In this document: piece by piece, positions 15,232-46,504 of the stretch
How the letters are laid out: each line of letters opens with the position of its first letter
Numbering within the stretch: position 1 is the stretch's first letter
DNA from: Podarcis erhardii
Taxonomy: Eukaryota
Length of the DNA: 64,000 bases
Direction: 5' to 3' (one strand)
Assembly: GCA_964252035.1 (NCBI GenBank)
Contig: OZ176205.1
Made by a program: the position numbers and the translations under genes
Notes under the pieces: model-generated
Seen by the model: the letters and a program-made list of their open reading frames with translations, nothing else
Databases searched by the model: none
What the model was told of the DNA's origin: nothing

Positions 15232-17048
15232 TACTAAGAGTAGGAAGGCAGCATGCATTTTTAATTCCATTCAGGAGTGAGAGGCTACTGCCATCCCAGC
15301 TGGCCTGAGCACGGCAAAGGAAAAACAAGCCTTTAAAACAGAGTTTGACTTACACCACCCTTCTTTGCTGGCATACGTTCCGCTGTGTTGCCAGGCCATG
15401 TGACTGAGCTGCAAGCGTTGTTTTTTTAAAAATCTCTTCTTTCCCCCTCCTGCCCCCATCACACCACTGGGACACACTTTCAGGGGACATATGCTGGCAA
15501 ACATTCTGCTGGCTGAAATCAAGGGGTGGGGACAAAACAAAACACTGCGGCTTTGTTTAACCCAGGAATGGAGAATCTGAGTCCCAGGTCCTGAATGTGA
15601 TCCACCTGATCTCTCTATCTGGCCCATGTGACTCTTCCCAGGCCGCATCCCTCTCTAACCACACTCCTCACAGCCCCTGTCCCAGGTGGTTTTGCCGGGC
15701 TGGAATGTGTCCTTAAATTGATAATGTCTCTTGTTGCCTTGATGGAGGACGCAGAGGGGTGTGTACGTAGAAACAAGCCTAAGGTACAAAAGTAAGCTTT
15801 ACATTAATTGTTCCACCCACACCACATTAGCCTTTGTCCCCACCCACCCCTGGCATGTGATGTGGCCCTTAGAAGGTTGTCCAGAATGGAATGTGGTTCT
15901 CAGGCTAAGAAGGATTTCCCTAGCCATATGTGTGTGTGCATGCATGCACATGCATGCATGGGGGGGGGGTTTCTTCTGGGTAGTTGGAGTGGAACCCCAG
16001 GTTCAGCTTGCCAACATATCTTATCTGATGCAAAATTTTAATTCATTTCTGGTGCTGAACATGCATTACTATACCCACATACCTGGAAGTCAACCCCACT
16101 GGCCTCAAGTGGGACTTGATGCTGAATTAGACGTGTGCAGGGTAGTGCTGTAAATCTCAGTTCCGAAAGTCCTGGGCTGTTCAGCAATGTGGTTTCGGGT
16201 ATTCAAGAATGTCGATGTAAAAAACAAACAAGCCCCGGAGCACAACAAACCTCTTGTATATGCAATCTTGCTCAGTCAAATGGGTTCAGAGGGAAACTCA
16301 CTGGGTTTATCGTTTTAATATATTTTCCCTGGGAGAGGGAGAAACATTCCTGAATGAATTGGTGTATATAGCGAGACGCCACACATGAAAATGCAATTGA
16401 TGACTAAGTCTGTGCGCCTCTTCCAGGAGGCCGGTTAACTCAAAAGCAACACGTGCAGCTAGTGCCTTTGTTGCACAATAGCATGATGGAGCCTGTGTAA
16501 AAAAGCTATTTATACTCTCTGATTCAGTTAACGGGAGGCTTGCTCTGATGTGCTGCCAGGGACCTTTAAAGTAGCCCATCCAAACAGATAGAGGAGGGCC
16601 TTGATGATCTTGTTTATCTAACCCTCACACATCCAAAACCCTCTTGCCCCCAAACAGAGTCATATCCTCCTAAGGCATTCCCAGAAATGCGGTCTGGAGA
16701 AACAGCTGGCTGGATTTCTCCAAACTGGTTGGCTTAGTTTTTTGTTTGCTGGGCCTCCACTAGGGATGCATGCATGAACTGTGAGTGACATGCAAAGGAA
16801 CAGACAGAGCTCCCGTTATTGAAACACTTTTAACAGTTGCACGGAACAGAGACTATTGGCAGGAACAGCCTTGTAAGGGAGACCCAAACCAGCCCTTACA
16901 AAGCTCTTTGCTGTGATTTGTTCTCAAGCCGAGAGATGGAGAGGCATATCCTGAAACATTTCAGAGGCTGCTTATTTTAATCTGCTTCAAGTAAGTGTTT
17001 GCTCTTCTCCTCCCAGAAGGTGATGGTGCAATGCCAAAAATGCACCGG

Positions 17049-17690
17049 TGTGCTGGACCCGGGGGAAAGGTACCGTGAGCGTAGTCTGAGTCCACACGAA
17101 GAGGGGCGAGGTCCGAGGCGGAGAGCCGGGCGGGGAACAGGAACGCTGGAACAGGAGGCCGAGCAGGGAACAGGAACACCGGATGGTCAGGAACAGGAGG
17201 CCGAGCAGGGAACAGGAGCACCGGGTGGTCAGGAACAGGAGGCCAAGCAGGGAACAGGAACACAGGAAGGTCCAAAGCCAACAACGACGTTGCTCCCGCA
17301 ACCTGGGACCGGGCTGACTGGGCTTTTATCCTCTTCTAAGGCCAGGGGCGGTCCCGGCCCCCAGGAGCCCCGCCTCCTCTGGCCTTAAGGCGAGCACTCC
17401 TCCTGGGAGCAACCAGTTCCCTTCGCCTCTCTGCCCTAAGCCTCTGCAGATCAGGAGAGGCCGAAGGGTTACTGGGCCCTGGAGGAGGCTCACCTGTAGC
17501 CACTGAGTCCTCAAGCCCCTCTGGGGCCTGAAGGGTTTCACCTGGGGCCAGCTCCTGGTGCTCTGCCACAGGTGCAGGCTCTTCAGCATCTAGGCCTTGC
17601 CCCAGTTCAGCCGGCCCTGGAGGCGGGGACTCCTGTGCAGGCTGGGATTCCTCTGGTTCATCCTCTGAATCGGAATCCCAGGCCATCACA
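17049..17690 (-). repeat. 3' LTR (642 bp)
   Basis: Direct repeat of 22073-22714, preceded on the minus strand by the polypurine tract. Confidence 0.97.
17148..17273 (+). repeat. Three tandem 42-bp repeats in the R/U5 part of the LTR (also 22172-22297)
   Basis: Units start at 17148, 17190 and 17232: GGAACAGGAGGCCGAGCAGGGAACAGGAACACCGGATGGTCA with few substitutions. Confidence 0.92.
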
Positions 17691-18199
17691 CCATCCCCCC
17701 TCCCAGGCCCCCCCCTCAACCGAGGGTCCGGACCCGGCTTGCCGGGGTACGTCGCATGGAACTCTCGGAGGCAGGCAGGTGCGTGGACGTTGGCCGCTGG
17801 TTCCCAGGAACGGTCCTCCGGTCCGTACCCCTTCCAGTCAATGAGATACTGCAGCTTTCCCCTGCGGTATCGGGAGTCCAGGATGCGTTCCACCTCGTAC
17901 TCAGGCTCTCCCTGAACCAACACTGGCTGCGGTCGGGGACGGTTCGGGTGGAACTCGTCGGGTGGGGCCACTGGACTCAGAAGGGACCTGTGGAAGACCG
18001 GGTGAACCTTCAGGGTTGCGGGTAACCGGAGACGGAATGCCACAGGAGAGACTTGGTCCACGATAGGGAACGGGCCGGTGAATCGGGCGTCCAACTTCCG
18101 CGAAGGTCGAGAGGGGTGGAGGTGGCGAGTGGAGAGCCAAACCAGGTCACCGACGCGAAGTTCCGGCCCCACCTGGCGGTGGCGGTCGGCCTGGGCTTT
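17336..18199 (-). CDS. In-frame continuation of pol after the TAA: integrase C-terminus (GPF motif), chromodomain, then an acidic/basic tail encoded in U3 of the 3' LTR
   Basis: Same frame as 18200-22009 (22039-18172 is divisible by 3); FTGPFPI motif; chromodomain YEVERILDSR...YLIDWKGYGPEDRSWEP; no stop until TAG at 17336-17338 inside the LTR. Confidence 0.88.
   Translation of the reverse strand, partial: KAQADRHRQVGPELRVGDLVWLSTRHLHPSRPSRKLDARFTGPFPIVDQVSPVAFRLRLPATLKVHPVFHRSLLSPVAPPDEFHPNRPRPQPVLVQGEPEYEVERILDSRYRRGKLQYLIDWKGYGPEDRSWEPAANVHAPACLREFHATYPGKPGPDPRLRGGPGRGDGVMAWDSDSEDEPEESQPAQESPPPGPAELGQGLDAEEPAPVAEHQELAPGETLQAPEGLEDSVATGEPPPGPSNPSASPDLQRLRAERRRELVAPRRSARLKARGGGAPGGRDRPWP
17694..17704 (-). 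other. Polypurine tract (plus-strand primer)
   Basis: GGGAGGGGGGA on the minus strand, 3 nt before the TG of the 3' LTR. Confidence 0.9.
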
Positions 18200-21100
18200 T
18201 TACGCTTCCTTGGCCTGGTGCAGTTGCTCCACCAAAAGCTGTTGCTGGGACTGGAGCTCTTGAAGCCACTCCGTCACCGCCGGGACCGCGGATGCCGGCA
18301 GCACATCTGGAAACAGCCGTGGATGATAACCGTAACTGGCCTGGAACGGGGTCTGCTGGGTGGACGCATTCACCGCGTTGTTGTAGGCGAACTCCGCCAA
18401 TGCCAGGTGGTCGACCCAGTCATCCTGCTGGTAGCTGCAGTAACACCGGAGGTACTGCTCCAGCACCGCGTTCGCCCGTTCCGTCTGGCCATCGGTCTGT
18501 GGGTGGTAGGCTGACGAGAGGCAGACCTCTGTCCCGAGGGTCTGGTGTAATGCTCGCCAGAACCGGGATGTGAACTGAACGCCCCGGTCGGACACCACGC
18601 GCTCAGGTAGGCCATGCAGGCGGAAGACATGCTGAAGGTACAGCTGAGCGGTTTCCTTGGCTGTGGGTACAGATGGGCAGGGGGCGCAGTGCACCATCTT
18701 GGTGAAATGGTCGGAGAAAACTAGGAGGCAGGTACAACCACGAGACGGGGGTAAGTCCACTACAAAGTCCAACGAAACCGTGTGCCAAGGGCGCGGTGGA
18801 ACTGGCAATGGCTGAAGTAGGCCGGGGGGTCGCCCGGTAGGGCCCTTGGCGCGCCGGCAGACATCACAACCAGCAACGTATCGAGCCACGTCAGCCTTCA
18901 GGCGGGGCCACCAAAACTCACGACTGACCAGATGGGTGGTCCGATACCGTCCAAAGTGCCCCGCTGCTGGGGCATCATGGGCCATCCGGAGAACCTCCAG
19001 CCGCAGTGGCCCTGGCGGGATGTACAGACGACCGTGGTGCAGCAGAAGGCCCTGATGCAGGACCAGCCCCGGATACTGTGGGCTGGACCCTTCAGCCAGC
19101 TCCTGGAGTCGTTCCTGGGCCCAAGCGTCGACCCGCTGCTGTTTCCGCACCCGAGCCTGCAGTGGCTCCGCCTCCTGGGTGGCCAGGAATGCAGCTGGAG
19201 GTAGGATCGTGGTGGGTTCTGCTTGCTGTACCGTGTCTGAGTTGTCTTCAGGTTTCCGGGACAGGGCATCCGCCTTCTGGTTCTGAGAGCTAGGGATGTA
19301 GCGGATCCGGAACTGGAACCGGGAAAAGAACAACGCCCACCGGATCTGTCTTTGGTTCAGCTTGCGGGTGGTCTGGAGGTACTCCAGGTTCCGGTGGTCG
19401 GTTCTCACCTCCACCGGATGTCGTGCCCCCTCAAGATGGTGGCGCCAGACCTCAAAGGCCACCTTGATGGCCAGTAGTTCCCGCTCCCACACAGTATAGT
19501 TACGCTCCGCTGGTAGGAGCTGGCGGGAATAGAAGGCACAGGGTAAGAGTGGCGCTTCAGGTCCATTCTGTTGAGACAAGACGGCACCGAGAGCCGTACT
19601 GGAGGCGTCGGTCTCCACCACAAAGGGTCGAGAGGGGTCAGGATGTTGTAAGATTGGCGCCCTCTGGAAACAGGCCTTCAACCCCTGAAACGCCTCCTCT
19701 GCCTCCTTGTCCCAGGAAAACGGCGTCTTTGGGCGCAGTAGCCGGGTCAACGGGGTGGTGCGATGAGCATAATCTGCGATGAAGGTCCGGTAGTAGTTGG
19801 CGAACCCCAGGAAACGCTGTAGGTCCTTGCGGTTCCGGGGTGCCGCCCATTCTCGAACCGCTGCCACCTTCCCAGGGTCCATCTGCACCCCATCTGGAGA
19901 GAGCCGGTGTCCAAGGAAGTCCACAGTCCGCTGATGGAACTCGCACTTGCTGAGCTTTGCGTACAAACGGTGCTCACGCAAGCGCTGCAGCACGGTCCGG
20001 ACATGTCCCTCATGGTGAGCCGGGTCACGGGAGTAAACCAGTATGTCATCCAAGTACACCACCACGTACTTGTCTAACAAGTCCTGGAACACGTGGTTGA
20101 TGTAGCGTTGGAACACAGCAGGCGCGTTGCACAAACCGAAAGGCATAACCAAGTATTCGAACTGCCCGTACCGGGTCCCAAATGCTGTCTTCCACTCATC
20201 CCCGGCTCGGATCCGAATCAAGTTGTAGGCCCCCCGGAGGTCCAGCTTGGTGAACACCTGTGCCCCTTGCACCCGCTCCAGCAACTCTGAGATAAGGGGC
20301 AAGGGGTACCGGTCTGGGATGGTAATTTTGTTCAGGGCTCGGTAATCATGGCAAGGGCGAAGTTCCCCACATTTCTTCTTAACAAAGAGCACTGGTGCCG
20401 CGGTAGGCGAGGTGGAAGGCCTAATGAACCCACGCTCCAGGTTCTTGCGCAAGAAGTCCTGCAAAGCCTCGCGCTCTGGCTCTGTTAGAGAATATAAGCG
20501 ACTCACTGGTAAGGGTGCTCCGGGCTGGAGGTCTATGCCGCAGTCAAAAGGTCGATGCGGCGGCAGCTGGTCTGCCCCCCGTTCCTCGAACACGTCCTGG
20601 TAGTCCTGGTACACGGCTGGGAGCGTGGGTGCTGCCTCCTCCGTGGGCGCGGCCGCCAGCGTCTCGGATTGAGCATGGGAACATGGGTCTGGGAAGTGCA
20701 CAGTCCGTTTGACCCAGTCAATCTGAACGTTGTGAGCTTCCAGCCAGTCCATCCCGAGCACGAGGGGGAACCGGGGCATAGAGGCAATGTCCAAAGTTCG
20801 CAACTCCCGGTGCTGCTGGAGACACAGGACCAGGGGCTGGGTCTCCTGAGTAACGGCTCCTGAACGTAGAAGCCGTCCGTCAATTGCTTCCACCTGGACC
20901 GGTTCTGGCTTGTTCCGAAGTGGCACCTGATGATGGGCAGCAAAAGCAGTGTCCATATAAGAACGGGTTGCTCCTGAATCCACCAAAGCATGGGTAAGAA
21001 TCCAGGGCCCACCTGGAGGGTATAAACGTACCGGAACCATAAGATGTTGCAAGTCCATTGGTGCGGGCCCATTCTGCGCTGTTTGGGACCCCCGGTAGCT

Positions 21101-22009
21101 AGGGCCATCAGCTACTGGGGGTTGGCGGTTTCCCTGCGGCTGGCGTTTCTCAGGGCAGGACCGAGCGTAGTGTCCACTTCCGCCACAGTAGAGACATAGA
21201 TTCCCCTCCCGACGCCGCACCTTCTCTGCGGGGGAAAGGCATGGCCGCACTGCCCCGAGCTGCATAGGCTCCTCCGATAACTCAGTTGTGACCGTGGGGC
21301 TGCCGGAAGAAACTGGTGCCGAGAACTGGAGGTGTCGTCGGCCCCGGGCCTGGCGACGATCCTCCAGCCGGTCGTCTATCTGTAGACTCCGTTGAATGAG
21401 AGTGTCTAGCGTGGTGGGGCGTTCCATTGTGGCCAGCTGGTCCAGTATCTCGTCCGAAAGCCCTTCGAGATACTGGTCCCGCAATGCCGAGTCGTTCCAG
21501 GTCAAGTCCTGTGCCAACAGCCGAAACTCCGTGGTATATGCGGCCACCGTGGACTCGCCCTGTTTCAACTGCCGAATCGCCCGGTTGGCTTGACTCCCTT
21601 TCTGGGGGTTGCCGAACGCGGCCTCCAAAAGATTGCAAAACCCCATATAGTCTGCCAGCAAGGGGGAGTCTTGCCTGAGTAGCGGCAACGCCCACTTGGC
21701 CGCCTGGTCCTTTAACAAACTAATCAAAAAGTGCACCTTGGTGCGGTCGTCAGGGAAGTTCCGGGCTCGCCCCTGAATATACAGCTTGGCTTGGGCGAGG
21801 AACATGGGAAAGCTGGCCGGGGCTCCATCAAATTTCTCGGGCAAAGCCACTGGGTACTTGCCAGGAGCCGGGGCGTCAGCCCCAGGAGCCGGTAGGGCTT
21901 CCAAGCGCTGCTGAAGTGCCGTAACCGCGTCGCTGAGCTGCTGCACGGTGTGAGTCAAGGCCTGGTTCTTCTGGGCCAAAGCCACCAGCGCAGCCGCCTG
22001 GTCAGCCAT
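18200..22009 (-). CDS. gag-pol: Gag-Pol polyprotein (Gag, CCHC knuckle, aspartic protease, RT, RNase H, integrase core), ending at a premature TAA
   Basis: ATG at 22009 in strong Kozak context (GCCATGG); zinc knuckle CLYCGGSGHYARSC at 21155-21196; protease LVDSGA near 20972-20986; RT YLDD at 20045-20056; RNase H VETDAS; integrase HHCC (HDAPAAGH...CDVC) and D,D-35-E core (SLDFV, SDRG, DGQTE). Confidence 0.95.
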   Translation of the reverse strand: MADQAAALVALAQKNQALTHTVQQLSDAVTALQQRLEALPAPGADAPAPGKYPVALPEKFDGAPASFPMFLAQAKLYIQGRARNFPDDRTKVHFLISLLKDQAAKWALPLLRQDSPLLADYMGFCNLLEAAFGNPQKGSQANRAIRQLKQGESTVAAYTTEFRLLAQDLTWNDSALRDQYLEGLSDEILDQLATMERPTTLDTLIQRSLQIDDRLEDRRQARGRRHLQFSAPVSSGSPTVTTELSEEPMQLGAVRPCLSPAEKVRRREGNLCLYCGGSGHYARSCPEKRQPQGNRQPPVADGPSYRGSQTAQNGPAPMDLQHLMVPVRLYPPGGPWILTHALVDSGATRSYMDTAFAAHHQVPLRNKPEPVQVEAIDGRLLRSGAVTQETQPLVLCLQQHRELRTLDIASMPRFPLVLGMDWLEAHNVQIDWVKRTVHFPDPCSHAQSETLAAAPTEEAAPTLPAVYQDYQDVFEERGADQLPPHRPFDCGIDLQPGAPLPVSRLYSLTEPEREALQDFLRKNLERGFIRPSTSPTAAPVLFVKKKCGELRPCHDYRALNKITIPDRYPLPLISELLERVQGAQVFTKLDLRGAYNLIRIRAGDEWKTAFGTRYGQFEYLVMPFGLCNAPAVFQRYINHVFQDLLDKYVVVYLDDILVYSRDPAHHEGHVRTVLQRLREHRLYAKLSKCEFHQRTVDFLGHRLSPDGVQMDPGKVAAVREWAAPRNRKDLQRFLGFANYYRTFIADYAHRTTPLTRLLRPKTPFSWDKEAEEAFQGLKACFQRAPILQHPDPSRPFVVETDASSTALGAVLSQQNGPEAPLLPCAFYSRQLLPAERNYTVWERELLAIKVAFEVWRHHLEGARHPVEVRTDHRNLEYLQTTRKLNQRQIRWALFFSRFQFRIRYIPSSQNQKADALSRKPEDNSDTVQQAEPTTILPPAAFLATQEAEPLQARVRKQQRVDAWAQERLQELAEGSSPQYPGLVLHQGLLLHHGRLYIPPGPLRLEVLRMAHDAPAAGHFGRYRTTHLVSREFWWPRLKADVARYVAGCDVCRRAKGPTGRPPGLLQPLPVPPRPWHTVSLDFVVDLPPSRGCTCLLVFSDHFTKMVHCAPCPSVPTAKETAQLYLQHVFRLHGLPERVVSDRGVQFTSRFWRALHQTLGTEVCLSSAYHPQTDGQTERANAVLEQYLRCYCSYQQDDWVDHLALAEFAYNNAVNASTQQTPFQASYGYHPRLFPDVLPASAVPAVTEWLQELQSQQQLLVEQLHQAKEA
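21066..21134 (-). other. -1 ribosomal frameshift cassette: GGGAAAC slippery heptamer plus predicted H-type pseudoknot
   Basis: G-GGA-AAC in the gag frame at 21134-21128; stem 1 CCCCCAGUAGCU/AGCUACCGGGGG (11 of 12 pairs); stem 2 GGCCC/GGGCC (loop 21101-21109 with 21066-21070). Same layout as the PEG10/sushi signal. Confidence 0.8.
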
Positions 22010-22060: not shown

Positions 22061-22070
22061 GCGGGAGCAA
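22061..22070 (-). other. Primer-binding site of the self-priming type (not complementary to tRNA CCA)
   Basis: Minus strand TTGCTCCCGC, 2 nt after the 5' LTR; no TGG start; perfectly complementary to LTR positions 22314-22323. Confidence 0.7.
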
Positions 22071-22072
22071 AC

Positions 22073-22714
22073 TGTGCTGGACCCGGGGGAAAGGTACCGT
22101 GAGCGTAGTCTGAGTCCACACGAAGAGGGGCGAGGTCCGAGGCGGAGAGCCGGGCGGGGAACAGGAACGCTGGAACAGGAGGCCGAGCAGGGAACAGGAA
22201 CACCGGATGGTCAGGAACAGGAGGCCGAGCAGGGAACAGGAGCACCGGGTGGTCAGGAACAGGAGGCCAAGCAGGGAACAGGAACACAGGAAGGTCCAAA
22301 GCCAACAACGACGTTGCTCCCGCAACCTGGGACCGGGCTGACTGGGCTTTTATCCTCTTCTAAGGCCAGGGGCGGTCCCGGCCCCCAGGAGCCCCGCCTC
22401 CTCTGGCCTTAAGGCGAGCACTCCTCCTGGGAGCAACCAGTTCCCTTCGCCTCTCTGCCCTAAGCCTCTGCAGATCAGGAGAGGCCGAAGGGTTACTGGG
22501 CCCTGGAGGAGGCTCACCTGTAGCCACTGAGTCCTCAAGCCCCTCTGGGGCCTGAAGGGTTTCACCTGGGGCCAGCTCCTGGTGCTCTGCCACAGGTGCA
22601 GGCTCTTCAGCATCTAGGCCTTGCCCCAGTTCAGCCGGCCCTGGAGGCGGGGACTCCTGTGCAGGCTGGGATTCCTCTGGTTCATCCTCTGAATCGGAAT
22701 CCCAGGCCATCACA
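22073..22714 (-). repeat. 5' LTR (642 bp)
   Basis: On the minus strand begins TGTGATGG and ends CCAGCACA; no differences from 17049-17690 found by eye, and the ORF-track translations of the two copies match. Confidence 0.97.
22348..22354 (-). promoter_or_regulatory. TATA-like box of the LTR promoter (GATAAAA)
   Basis: Lies 25 nt upstream of the putative self-priming 5' end; the same motif and spacing occur in the solo LTR (42211-42217). Confidence 0.55.
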
Positions 22715-25328
22715 ACCGGTTTGGAAACCGAATCGGTTCACTATTTTGGCCCACCCTTGACAGCTTGTCATGCAAAGCTGCACTTAGTGAAATCCCCTCT
22801 TCTCTATGACTGTTAAGGAACTGTGTCCTCCTTTCTATCTAGCTATGAAAAAGCACTCTAGGCCTGTCCCTCAGCTCACACCTAATAAAGTCTCAGATTG
22901 CCCTGAGAATCAGCTTTCACCTAAAAGCTGGAAATGATATCAACAGAGTCCCCTGAGATTGCACCCTCAGGCTTACTCTGCAGATGAAGTGCTAAGAGAT
23001 GTGAACTGGCCAAAGTCTCTCATAAAGTTTGTGGCAGAGAAGAGAGATGAACAACACTGTGGATGAACAGGGTGGCCATATGTCCTATTTTACTCCAGAC
23101 AATCCTCTACTTGAAGGGCTGTCCAGGCCAAAGTCTGGTTTGAATATATGTCTGGTTATCAAGGCCTTCCCCTTGAGGACGATAACACTTCATGCGTTTG
23201 GCAATATGGGCCCTAGTCTGTGAAAGCTTAGGTCATAACTCTGTAACTCTTGAAGGTGCCACAGGACTGTTGTTTTTGCTGCAACAATCTAGCATGGCTG
23301 TCCCTCTGAAAGATGTTGCCTCAGATATGCCAGTGTGCTTTCAGCTTTCTTAACTGATAACTTTTATGAATCAATTTATGCATTCATCTTTCACCACTCT
23401 AGGCATCCTCAAGGTGACATGCATCACAAAAATAACACCACTGAAGTACAATCCCCTCCCCAAAGCCAACAGCAATTAAACAGAGAGACTACGGCTGCAG
23501 GCACCCCATACATTTAGAGCACATTTAAAGCATATGACTTCCTCAAAAGAATCATGGGAACTGTAGTTTACCCCTCACAGAGCCAGCCCCCATGTCAAAC
23601 TACAGCTCCCATTATCCTTTGGAGGAAGTTGTGTGCTTATAAATGTATGATGTGTATGCAGCCTATTGATTTCTATAGGAGCGGTTCAACCATTCTGATT
23701 TCTCTCTCACCGAGATAGCTCAGCTTTAGCTTATAGTCGTTCTTATTTTACTAATATGTTATGGAATAAAATGGGCAAAATTATAATACACCAGAGGGGG
23801 AAACATAGCTCCCTACCTTTTGGTTTTTTAATAAGACCTTGAGCCAATAAGGTCATTTAAATTTACATCCCTTTCCCCAAAGCTGGTCCCTAGAAACCGT
23901 TCTCCCCTGCCCCACATGAATATGCATGCCTACCTATAAGGCTTCTCTTTCTCTCCCCCCGCCCCCCCTTCTCTCAGACTTCCTGACAGAATTCCTACCC
24001 ATCTGAGTGGCCTTCAAGAATGGACTGTAACTCTGCTCAGTCTAAAGTGGGGAAAGGGGGAGACAGGCTTTTCATTTAAACACCCTCCCCCCTCGATCAA
24101 GAGTAAACATTGTTCCTTTCACAAAGGAGCAGATTGTATTAGCTGGGAGATCAAGATAGAAGGAGAGACTCCTATGAGCAGAAGGCAAACGGGATGTGAA
24201 TATAAATTCTGCAAATATTTTCTTTCAGCCGCTGTGCGTAATCCCAGGAAATGGATCCAGTTTCGTTGCTGGAGGTGGGGGAGTGGGGAGCACTCTGCAT
24301 TCCAGTTGCCACAGGTTTCTTTGTGACAGTTTAAATATTTCATCCTGGGGGGGTGGGGGTGGGACTTTTCTTCAGACATTATTTAACCCTGCTCAGATCT
24401 GAAAAAAACACACAAAAGGAAGCAACAAGAAAAAATGGCGACAGGTAAAGGTTTTTGTAATGTGGGATAACAGAAGTGAAAATAGGGACACTTTTGTTTT
24501 CAGCACCCTCTTTTTTGCACAGGAAGATAGGAAGCCAGCCCTGTGTCAAGTCAAACCACTACTCCATCAACCTCCATCAACTGGAATATCTGGTTGGCCG
24601 CTGTAAGAACAGGATGCTGGAGGAGCCTTTTCTCTGATCCAGTAGGGCTTTTATTTTGTTCAGTATTGTCCACAGTGGCAGGCAGCTGCTGTCCAGTGTT
24701 TCAGATGAGGGAAATTCGCAGTTCTGCCTGGAATTGTCTGGGATTGAGTTCTGAATGCAAAGCAGATTCTCTATCACTGAGCTATGGCCTTTCCCCTCCA
24801 GAGATATAGAAAAATACAGAAATGCTGAAACACAGGAAGTATCAGTGCTTGGTCTCTCTCCACAAACCCCACCCTCAATCAGAACACGATTCCTACAAAC
24901 CAGATGTTGCCACAGGTTTCAGAGAGCCTCTTAGTTGCTCTTTCAAAAAACCGGTGAGAGGCACGATCTCGTCTTTTATTCAGGTTTCCCAGAGTTTCTC
25001 TTGAGCTGGGTGGGCTCAATTGCATTAGACCACAATGTTTCTCGAGGCCCGCTATTCCATCTGACAGAAGCCATGAGGCAGCACTGTGGTGGTGTATGTG
25101 GTACACCACATCATTAAGATGCTCTCGCTGGATCCAGAAAAGGTTTCTATCATACACTTCAAGTTACAAACGCCAGCATCTGCCAGGTCCACCAGATGGC
25201 TTCCATTAGAGAGGCCCAAAGTGGTGCCAGTCTCAGGTCTATTTGGCACATGAAAGGGGTGCATTTTATGGGGCAATGTAGCAAATAGAGTCAGAACAAG
25301 AAGTAATTATAAAGGGCTGCCACCAATT

Positions 25329-41997: not shown

Positions 41998-42594
41998 TGT
42001 GCTGGTCCCGTGGGCTAACCGAGAGGCGAGGTCCGAGTCCAGTCTGAGGTCGATGGTGCAATATGGAGGCACTCCGTAGAAGTTGAAGCTGGGTGCAGGG
42101 CAGGGAGTTGGGTGAGGTCAGGAGCTCTGGCAGAGAAGCAGGTCAGGGATCAGGCTGGAACTGACAACCAACGATGTTGCTCCCACAGCTTCGGACTGGG
42201 GCTGGCTGGCTTTTATCTCCCCCAAGGCATAGGGCGGCCCCAATCCTCAGGTGACTTGCCTCTCCTGGCCTGGAGGCGAGCACTCCTTAGTTTCCTCCGC
42301 CTCTTTGCCCTGAGCCTCTGCAGCTCAGGAGAGGCTGGAGGGTTACCGGACCCAGAGGCAACCTCAGCCTCCTCTGACGGGGCTGAGAGTGGAGCACCTG
42401 CAGGCAATAGGTCCTCCATCACCTCAGGAGCCAGAGCAGACTCAGCTGGTGCCTGCACCTGAGGATCCAGCACAGGTGAGGACCCTTCAGGCTCAGGCCC
42501 CAGCCCCGACTCAGCTGGTTCTGGAGGCGGGGAATCCTGTGCAGGCTGAGATGCCTCAGGTTCAGCATCCGAATCCAATTCCCAGGCCATTACA
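41998..42594 (-). mobile_element. Solo LTR (597 bp) of a related but distinct Gypsy family
   Basis: TG...CA termini resembling the full-length LTR (TGTAATGGCCTGGGA...CCAGCACA); 5-bp TSD ACCTG at 41993-41997 and 42595-42599; U3 alignable to the 642-bp LTR. Confidence 0.93.
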
Positions 42595-45684: not shown

Positions 45685-46440
45685 TGTTGTTGTTGTTTAG
45701 CCGTTTAGTCGTGTCCGACTCTTCATGACCCCATGGACCAGAGCACGCCAGGCACTCCTGTCTTCCACTCCCTTCCGCAGTTTGGTCAAACTCATGTTTG
45801 TAGCTTCGAGAACACTATCCAACCATCTCGTCCTCTGTTGTCCCCTTCTCCTTGTGCCCTCAATTTTTCCCAACATCAGGGTCTTTTCCAGGGAGTCTTC
45901 TCTTCTCATGAGGTGACCAAAGTATTGGAGTCTCAGCTTCAGGATCTGTCCTTCCAGTGAGCACTCAGGGCTGATTTCCTTAAGAATGGATAGGTTTGAT
46001 CTTCTTGCAGACCATGGGACTCTCAAGATTCTCCTCCAGCACCATAATTCAAAAGCATTAATTCTTCGTCGATCAGCCTTCTTTATGGTCCACCTCTCAC
46101 TTCCATACATCACTACTGGGAAAACCATGGCTTTAACTATATGGACCTTTGTTGGCAAGGTGATGTCTCTGCTTTTTAAGATGCTGTCTAGGTTTGTCAT
46201 CGCCTTTCTCCCAAGAAGCAGGCATCTTTTAATTTCGTGACTGCTGTCACCATCTGCAGTGATCATGGAGCCCAAGAAAGTAAAATCTCTCACTGCCTCC
46301 ATTTCTTCCCCTTCTATTTGCCAGGAGGTGATGAGCCCAGTGGCCATGATCTTTGTTTTTTTGATGTTGAACTTCAGACCATATTTTGCACTCTCCTCTT
46401 TCATCCTCATTAAAAGGTTCTTTAATTCCTCCTCACTTTT
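45685..46440 (-). mobile_element. BovB (RTE clade) LINE, 5'-truncated
   Basis: 237-aa open ORF2 C-terminus (YGLKFNIKKTKIM...FELWCWRRILRVPW); (CAA)n tail; 11-bp TSD TGCTTTTCCTT at 45674-45684 and 46441-46451. Confidence 0.96.
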
Positions 46441-46504
46441 TGCTTTTCCTTAGTATGACCCCATTTTCATCAGAGAATTTTTGGAGGGTATGGAGTTATG
46501 TGAC

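Follow-up and report, generated by a model that had tools for sequence, protein, structure and literature searches.

The locus studied here raises the question of whether the U3 region of a retrotransposon LTR encodes protein and, if so, whether this protein is the end of the integrase or a small protein of its own. The window, i.e. the whole stretch of 64,000 nucleotides of Podarcis erhardii that was analysed (contig OZ176205.1 of assembly GCA_964252035.1), carries a 5.7 kb LTR element on its minus strand, and the features of this element given below are all on that strand. Its 5′ LTR (22073..22714) and its 3′ LTR (17049..17690; 642 nt), compared as a pair, are identical, and the target-site duplication CCGGT flanks both (17044-17048 and 22715-22719). 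A single gag-pol frame (18203..22009) encodes gag, CCHC, PR, RT, RNase H and the integrase core, as assigned with Pfam. The C-terminal part of the integrase follows with a Tf2-like SH3 (GPY/F) domain (17969..18151; PF24626, E = 7.9e-19) and a chromodomain (17756..17899; PF00385, E = 1.5e-15). The initial annotation of this DNA had described a pol frame with no stop after the chromodomain, reading through the PPT into the 3′ LTR as far as a TAG at 17336-17338 and adding 116 residues from an ATG 4 nt inside the LTR. These coordinates hold: the first base of the 3′ LTR is 17690, the ATG is at 17686, and 116 codons plus the TAG (17336..17686) are in frame with pol across the PPT and its upstream G run (17695..17715), so that the 116 residues would form a C-terminal tail of the integrase. 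What had gone unmentioned is an in-frame stop at 18200-18202, which breaks the integrase ahead of the SH3 domain, the chromodomain and the tail. The frame is open from after 18200 across the SH3 domain, the chromodomain and the PPT into U3, but the copy in the window is unable to make the tailed protein because of this stop. Among 30 copies with an identical U3, two carry the same stop and 20 are open over all 502 codons checked upstream.

The gag–PR–RT–RH–IN order and the chromodomain at the integrase's C-terminal end (Pfam) place the element among the Ty3/Gypsy chromoviruses, and the aromatic cage of the chromodomain (Y101, W122 and Y125, numbered in a 287-aa frame) is that of group I. At the sequence level it is of the Tf1/Sushi type: in place of a tRNA PBS it has one that can pair, by complementarity, with the 5′ terminus of its own RNA. 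The bases just past the 5′ LTR and the LTR sequence from position 392 on form a 10-bp stem (22061..22070) that appears in both the MFE and the centroid fold and is present at nine of ten 5′ junctions. This self-priming layout is a trait of Tf1/Sushi elements (PMC6317226), and the element likely self-primes. An SH3–chromodomain tree, built without named reference elements, places it among squamate, amphibian and fish elements. We regard the element as a young chromovirus of the Tf1/sushi type from a lacertid lizard. The pairing position also suggests where R begins, namely at about LTR position 392, 31 nt past a TATA-like GATAAAA box (17324..17330) whose function we infer from this spacing. U3 would then be about 391 nt long and lie upstream of the transcription start, so that it would be present in the element RNA only at the 3′ end, behind pol; the copy of the ORF inside the 5′ LTR (22360-22710) would accordingly precede the start of transcription (about 22323). 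If R begins at the self-priming site, the ORF spans about 351 of the about 391 nt of U3 (~90%), so that the original statement that the whole of U3 is an open frame is true of most of it, the remainder lying outside. Neither AATAAA nor ATTAAA occurs in the LTR (17049-17690).

The family is young and very abundant. A first look gave 1787 candidates, and all 40 of those that were scored are 100% identical in U3. Its copies are scattered over many sites on some 20 large contigs. A Podarcis muralis protein in UniRef that is 95% identical covers the U3-encoded part too. A 30-Mb contig (C19) seems to recur often among the full-length copies in the match lists. Across four subfamilies, a pol frame that continues beyond the PPT into U3 is the normal condition of the family. 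From 150 chromodomain matches, we retained the 104 with frames of at least 1500 aa, chosen regardless of their tail; the tail is included in 94 of them, and the other ten lose it by slips of 1-2 nt in the G run before the PPT. In a second sample of 121 junctions, which is enriched for broken ones, the frame is kept at 49/59 junctions in A1, 18/21 in A2, 8/13 in C and 23/28 in D, and is thus the majority state in each subfamily. A conserved stop before the PPT, which would have spoken against a coding U3, is not the family state. No variant is exclusive to the tail-less copies; they do not form a lineage of their own and look like dead ends or assembly errors.

The tail carries a net charge of −19 over its residues 1-66 and of +8 over residues 77-116. 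The basic end starts with an SP site and a short predicted helix (17423..17458; tail residues 77-88, with the helix at 79-88), followed by the motif RRSARL (17387..17404; tail residues 95-100). AlphaFold2 gives high confidence to the SH3 domain and the chromodomain and low confidence to the tail (block means 47-59), the helix excepted. The U3 peptide has no Pfam match (searched with the solo copy described below), no PDB sequence match and no Atlas match. RRSARL, however, contains the RRSxR core of HMGN proteins and reproduces exactly the six residues with which the HMGN core begins in the HMGN/Dsup motif (RRSARLSA/RRSSR), which likewise stands in a disordered context, as predicted for the tail; cryo-EM shows HMGN RRSAR bound to the nucleosome acidic patch, the arginines of RRSARLSA contacting H2A-H2B (PMC12487698). 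The element differs from HMGN in that RRSARL is followed by KA and not by SA, and there is no homology outside the motif; binding by the tail is a prediction. A second precedent is the Gag of prototype foamy virus, in which an arginine anchor on the acidic patch steers integration (PMC12125541), although this anchor belongs to Gag, is encoded outside the LTR and uses another motif. The match to the HMGN core and the foamy virus precedent together favour a nucleosome tether. We propose that the 3′ end of the genomic RNA is translated through the PPT and U3 as part of Gag-Pol and that the tail is kept on the mature integrase, which would then carry at its end the chromodomain, followed by an acidic linker predicted to be disordered and by a basic helix plus RRSARL. 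This basic end would tether the integration complex to nucleosomes flexibly, at the H2A-H2B acidic patch and beside the chromodomain, with selection acting on the frame and on the ends of the tail and not on the linker. An integrase tail whose helix and RRSARL serve as an acidic-patch tether is in our view the best explanation of the sequences, with a probability of roughly 0.4. If the tail is granted to be translated and selected, the acidic-patch role, argued by analogy, has an even chance.

Similar tails occur in relatives. Five clusters of Anolis proteins (17, 4, 9, 33 and 1 members) run past GDSVM into acidic tails of 84-96 aa that end in SP..RR...RRSARIAAK or in RRSLR, RRNLR or RQSLR variants, with the exact RRSAR in only two of the five. 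Proteins of Rhineura and Vipera have acidic-then-basic tails without RRSAR. In an SH3–chromodomain tree of 64 rows picked by hand out of about 260 proteins, the element of the window forms one clade with the Anolis, Rhineura and Vipera sequences (support 100/98; about 0.9 substitutions per site), and the residues at the junction of these proteins suggest that their tails are also located in U3. The similarity between the Podarcis and Anolis tails is modest: only the motif aligns, its score is reached by 3 and 6 of 200 shuffles, and some 5-mer common to one of the five Anolis tails is found in 7-9% of shuffles. Against local shuffles, the Rhineura and Vipera tails have no significant similarity to that of Podarcis. 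An Anolis-type locus was not found in the viral contigs searched, and no second distant lineage in this genome was seen among the matches listed for the Rhineura protein and PF00385 queries, lists which the young family dominates. In the fish clade the tail has another end, SP-x-Y/F, in 10/147 and 8/103 chromodomain proteins. At four fish-like loci examined as DNA, a terminal SP(E/V)(Y/F) lies 7-29 codons past the PPT..TG junction and is written with different codons, which indicates that at least one clade conserves its terminal motif at the protein level. In many fish-like relatives the stop falls in the PPT, and several other loci of the scan stop in it or ahead of it; no tail is thus universally needed, and read-through is common but not universal. 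It should also be noted that at fish-like loci L264-L267, L280 and L324 pol ends in S(P/D/E)(E/V)(Y/F), with the motif past the PPT in four of them and closing an acidic tail with no PPT match nearby in two, and that three proteins in the fungal-like part of the tree (P0149, P0211 and P0256) also end in short RRSxR-type tails.

The main rival reading accepts a real and selected tail but takes its basic end for a bipartite, phosphorylation-regulated NLS of the integrase instead of a nucleosome anchor. RR-x10-RLKAR indeed fits the bipartite NLS pattern, an SP site lies ahead of the basic end in the Podarcis, Anolis and Rhineura tails, and Rhineura and Vipera keep the basic end without RRSAR; Ty1 integrase is also described as having a C-terminal NLS/targeting segment. 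On the other hand, the small residues of S-A-R-(L/I)-x-A persist in both Podarcis and Anolis, something that an NLS based on charge would not require, and one protein (P0039) retains RRSARIAAR in a tail of 17 aa that has no upstream basic cluster. We therefore consider an NLS to be unlikely, although it is the most serious competitor of the acidic-patch tether.

Is the frame under selection at all? The length of the ORF is weak evidence, because from base composition alone a particular frame would stay open for 115 codons with a probability of 0.035, and the U3 studied here has only 2-10 stops in its other frames; the caution voiced at the outset about GC-rich sequence was well placed. We counted changes between seven subfamily groups column by column and found 42.5 synonymous, 79.5 non-synonymous and no stop changes, with no stop in frame across the groups compared with 3 and 15 in the other sense frames. 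As a neutral baseline we used private changes in 46 solo copies of family B picked by DNA search (50 synonymous, 137 non-synonymous and 6 stop changes, with 2/15 indels in frame). This baseline replaced a first one from copies found by protein search (omega about 0.96), which was biased against amino-acid changes. The changes at the three codon positions number 35/31/55 between groups compared with 62/71/60 for the neutral private changes (p = 0.012). The two fixed indels in the body of the ORF, of 30 and 18 nt, are both divisible by three (p = 0.044 against the neutral 2/15), which is the outcome that the initial annotation expected of a coding U3. Stop avoidance gives p = 0.085 by Fisher's test and 0.023 by Poisson. 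The N-terminal and C-motif blocks, which were chosen by eye, together show 24 synonymous and 30 non-synonymous changes compared with 23/82 for the neutral set (p = 0.0055), the N-terminal block alone giving p = 0.031 and the C-motif block alone p = 0.081; the count test gives p of about 0.10-0.13 for the whole tail and p = 0.84 for the linker. Under GY94 the omega of the tail is 0.49-1.04 in six pairs and 0.70-1.06 in five pairs between families A and B, none of the 11 values being significantly below 1, compared with 0.10-0.20 for the integrase and a neutral baseline of 1.4. An NG86 omega of 0.53 was set aside, since it takes no account of transition bias. The last few codons of the tail switch frame between subfamilies. 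RRSARL is found in representative copies of all of the subfamilies inspected, and the codons of its RRSAR core are identical in the 6/6 lizard copies inspected, so that this stretch, 60 nt upstream of the TATA box, could also be kept as a DNA element. The tail thus appears to consist of a linker that is nearly neutral except for its frame, between ends under moderate constraint, the overall amino-acid constraint being weak. The coding constraint that had been proposed for U3 can be upheld for the frame and the two ends and not for the tail as a whole, and an omega near 1, which had been named as a sign against it, was partly what we obtained.

These data bear directly on the view that the read-through is an accident, in which the GC-rich U3 is conserved as DNA (the att end and promoter elements close to the TATA box) and a peptide with no function is tolerated. 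The values of omega near 1 in several pairs, the neutral linker, the 3.5% chance of an open frame and the RRSAR codons that are identical across lizard subfamilies are all in its favour, as are the tail-less state of about 10% of otherwise long-frame copies and the many relatives that stop in the PPT. Against it stand the excess of third-position changes, the in-frame fixed indels and the zero stops, as well as the persistence of the frame in four subfamilies although the G run is slippery, the motif found at the same place in Anolis although all similarity in the linker has been lost and the fish-like terminal motif conserved with different codons. An accident is accordingly a doubtful explanation, somewhat behind the NLS, and from these comparisons it is quite probable that the tail is translated and selected. 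A selected tail could also have a different task, for example in binding nucleic acids, in particle assembly or in contact with a host factor other than the nucleosome. Ends that are specific to each clade (RRSAR in squamates and SP(E/V)(Y/F) in fish) are what would be expected of short linear motifs with different partners, but no specific partner is indicated and the identity with the HMGN core speaks for the nucleosome, which makes such a role distinctly improbable.

The initial annotation had regarded the frame as preserved in a divergent LTR family and had left open a separate small protein. The window holds an old solo LTR of this family B (41998..42594, minus strand; TSD CAGGT), with a 125-aa open frame (42590-42213) whose TAA falls within its own GATAAAA box, as described. 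Of the two in-frame indels between the LTRs in the window, which had been read as frame-preserving, one of 30 nt is indeed a family-level difference; the other, a 12-nt deletion beside the motif, is private to the solo copy and hence no evidence of selection. The R/U5 regions, said to be rearranged and poorly alignable, do differ, mostly by indels, and the R start is conserved. Although the solo LTR in the window is open, the frame is intact as far as the end of the motif in only 7/23 solo LTRs that were selected by their U5 end; solo LTRs decay once inserted and the frame is not maintained in them. No family B copy with an internal region was found among 30 DNA matches, four PPT-like pattern loci and 150 protein matches (longest frame 274 aa). 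Two bulk RNA runs (204 and 192 reads, most of them 90-99% similar) give sparse coverage of the interior, with the orientation that sense RNA would have in common stranded libraries, and contain no splice joint at a depth too low to exclude rare RNA. A separate protein made from the ATG in U3, by way of a spliced or subgenomic RNA or of host transcripts running into solo LTRs, is very improbable: the ATG occupies the same position in the tails of Podarcis, Anolis and Rhineura, LTR candidates number in the thousands, LTR-matching RNA exceeds internal RNA and annotation pipelines begin gene models at this ATG, but the ATG lies inside the 8-nt att inverted repeat (TGTGATGG versus the complement of CCAGCACA; 7/8 match), CRM LTRs likewise start with TGATG (PMC3059260), the junction in Vipera lacks a Met, and the loss of the frame in solo LTRs proceeds at neutral rates. 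With an ATG that belongs to the att end and precedes the probable transcription start, an integrase tail fits better. The gene models concerned (public Podarcis models P0002-P0006) splice from the LTR ATG into gag or into a host receptor gene; they are probably annotation artefacts, exonisation being possible. The coding sequences of nef and sag overlap the U3 of the 3′ LTR as this frame does, but they are separate genes on spliced mRNAs, whereas this frame is fused to pol.

No precedent in chromoviral Gypsy elements had been known to the initial annotation. There are, however, plant examples: gag-pol extends into the 3′ LTR in CRM group A, whose CR motif is LTR-encoded (PMC3059260), and in several beet chromoviruses (PMC3605345), and the element studied here shares this run through the PPT as well as the LTR start of CRM. 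The likeness extends to the plant CR domain, modelled on CENH3 as a tether, a helix and an R-rich motif (RARAK), in which an LTR-encoded and poorly conserved tether is likewise followed by a helix and by an arginine-rich motif for which nucleosome contact has been proposed (PMC11302176). The CR domain itself, which takes the place of a chromodomain and has TRAR(A)R/K at the start of its helix, is not what we find: there is no RARAK, and the helix precedes RRSARL. CRM elements lack a true chromodomain and are primed by tRNA-Met, whereas this element has a group I chromodomain and likely self-primes; its copies appear to be dispersed over many chromosomes. Tf1/Sushi (V-clade) chromoviruses of vertebrates are alike in domain order, SH3 domain and chromodomain, self-priming and the TGTNA att end; the portions of their descriptions available to us (PMC6317226, PMC3601003) make no mention of a long U3-encoded integrase tail. 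Nor did we find a U3-encoded integrase tail described for vertebrate chromoviruses in the mainly open-access literature searched. The layout is known from plant chromoviruses, and the motif-bearing tail in a vertebrate element appears to be new. More speculatively, the promoter repeat of squamate chromoviruses might encode an acidic-patch anchor in mimicry of HMGN, which would act with the chromodomain to turn the integrase into a bivalent reader of nucleosomes, and clade-specific targeting motifs in U3 (RRSAR in squamates and SPEY/F in fish) might be a parallel to the plant CR domain. If this tentative idea is true, LTR-encoded integrase tails would be a general and overlooked chromovirus strategy. 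A translated tail would in itself mean that the U3 of these LTRs is of dual use as promoter and coding sequence, that integrase annotations that stop at the chromodomain are truncated and that gene predictors make false genes from the LTR ATG. A motif common to Anolis that matches the structurally solved HMGN anchor would in any case offer a testable idea for the contact between vertebrate chromoviruses and chromatin.

Finally, some minor observations concern the other parts of these elements. Family D has two common states: in three of six inspected copies gag and pol form one frame (~1560 aa), as in family A, and in the other three they are separate frames (pol of ~1308 aa). Copies L257-L262 of this family carry a GGGAAAC heptamer near the gag–pol junction, which we take to resemble a −1 slippery site. 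Copies of family D that share one U3 (for example, L149 and L152) carry different R-U5 types, suggesting that R-U5 modules may have been exchanged between subfamilies by template switching. Elsewhere in the window, a weak RT-like fragment at 45700-46449 (PF00078, E = 0.0024, below the cut-off) is probably a decayed LINE.
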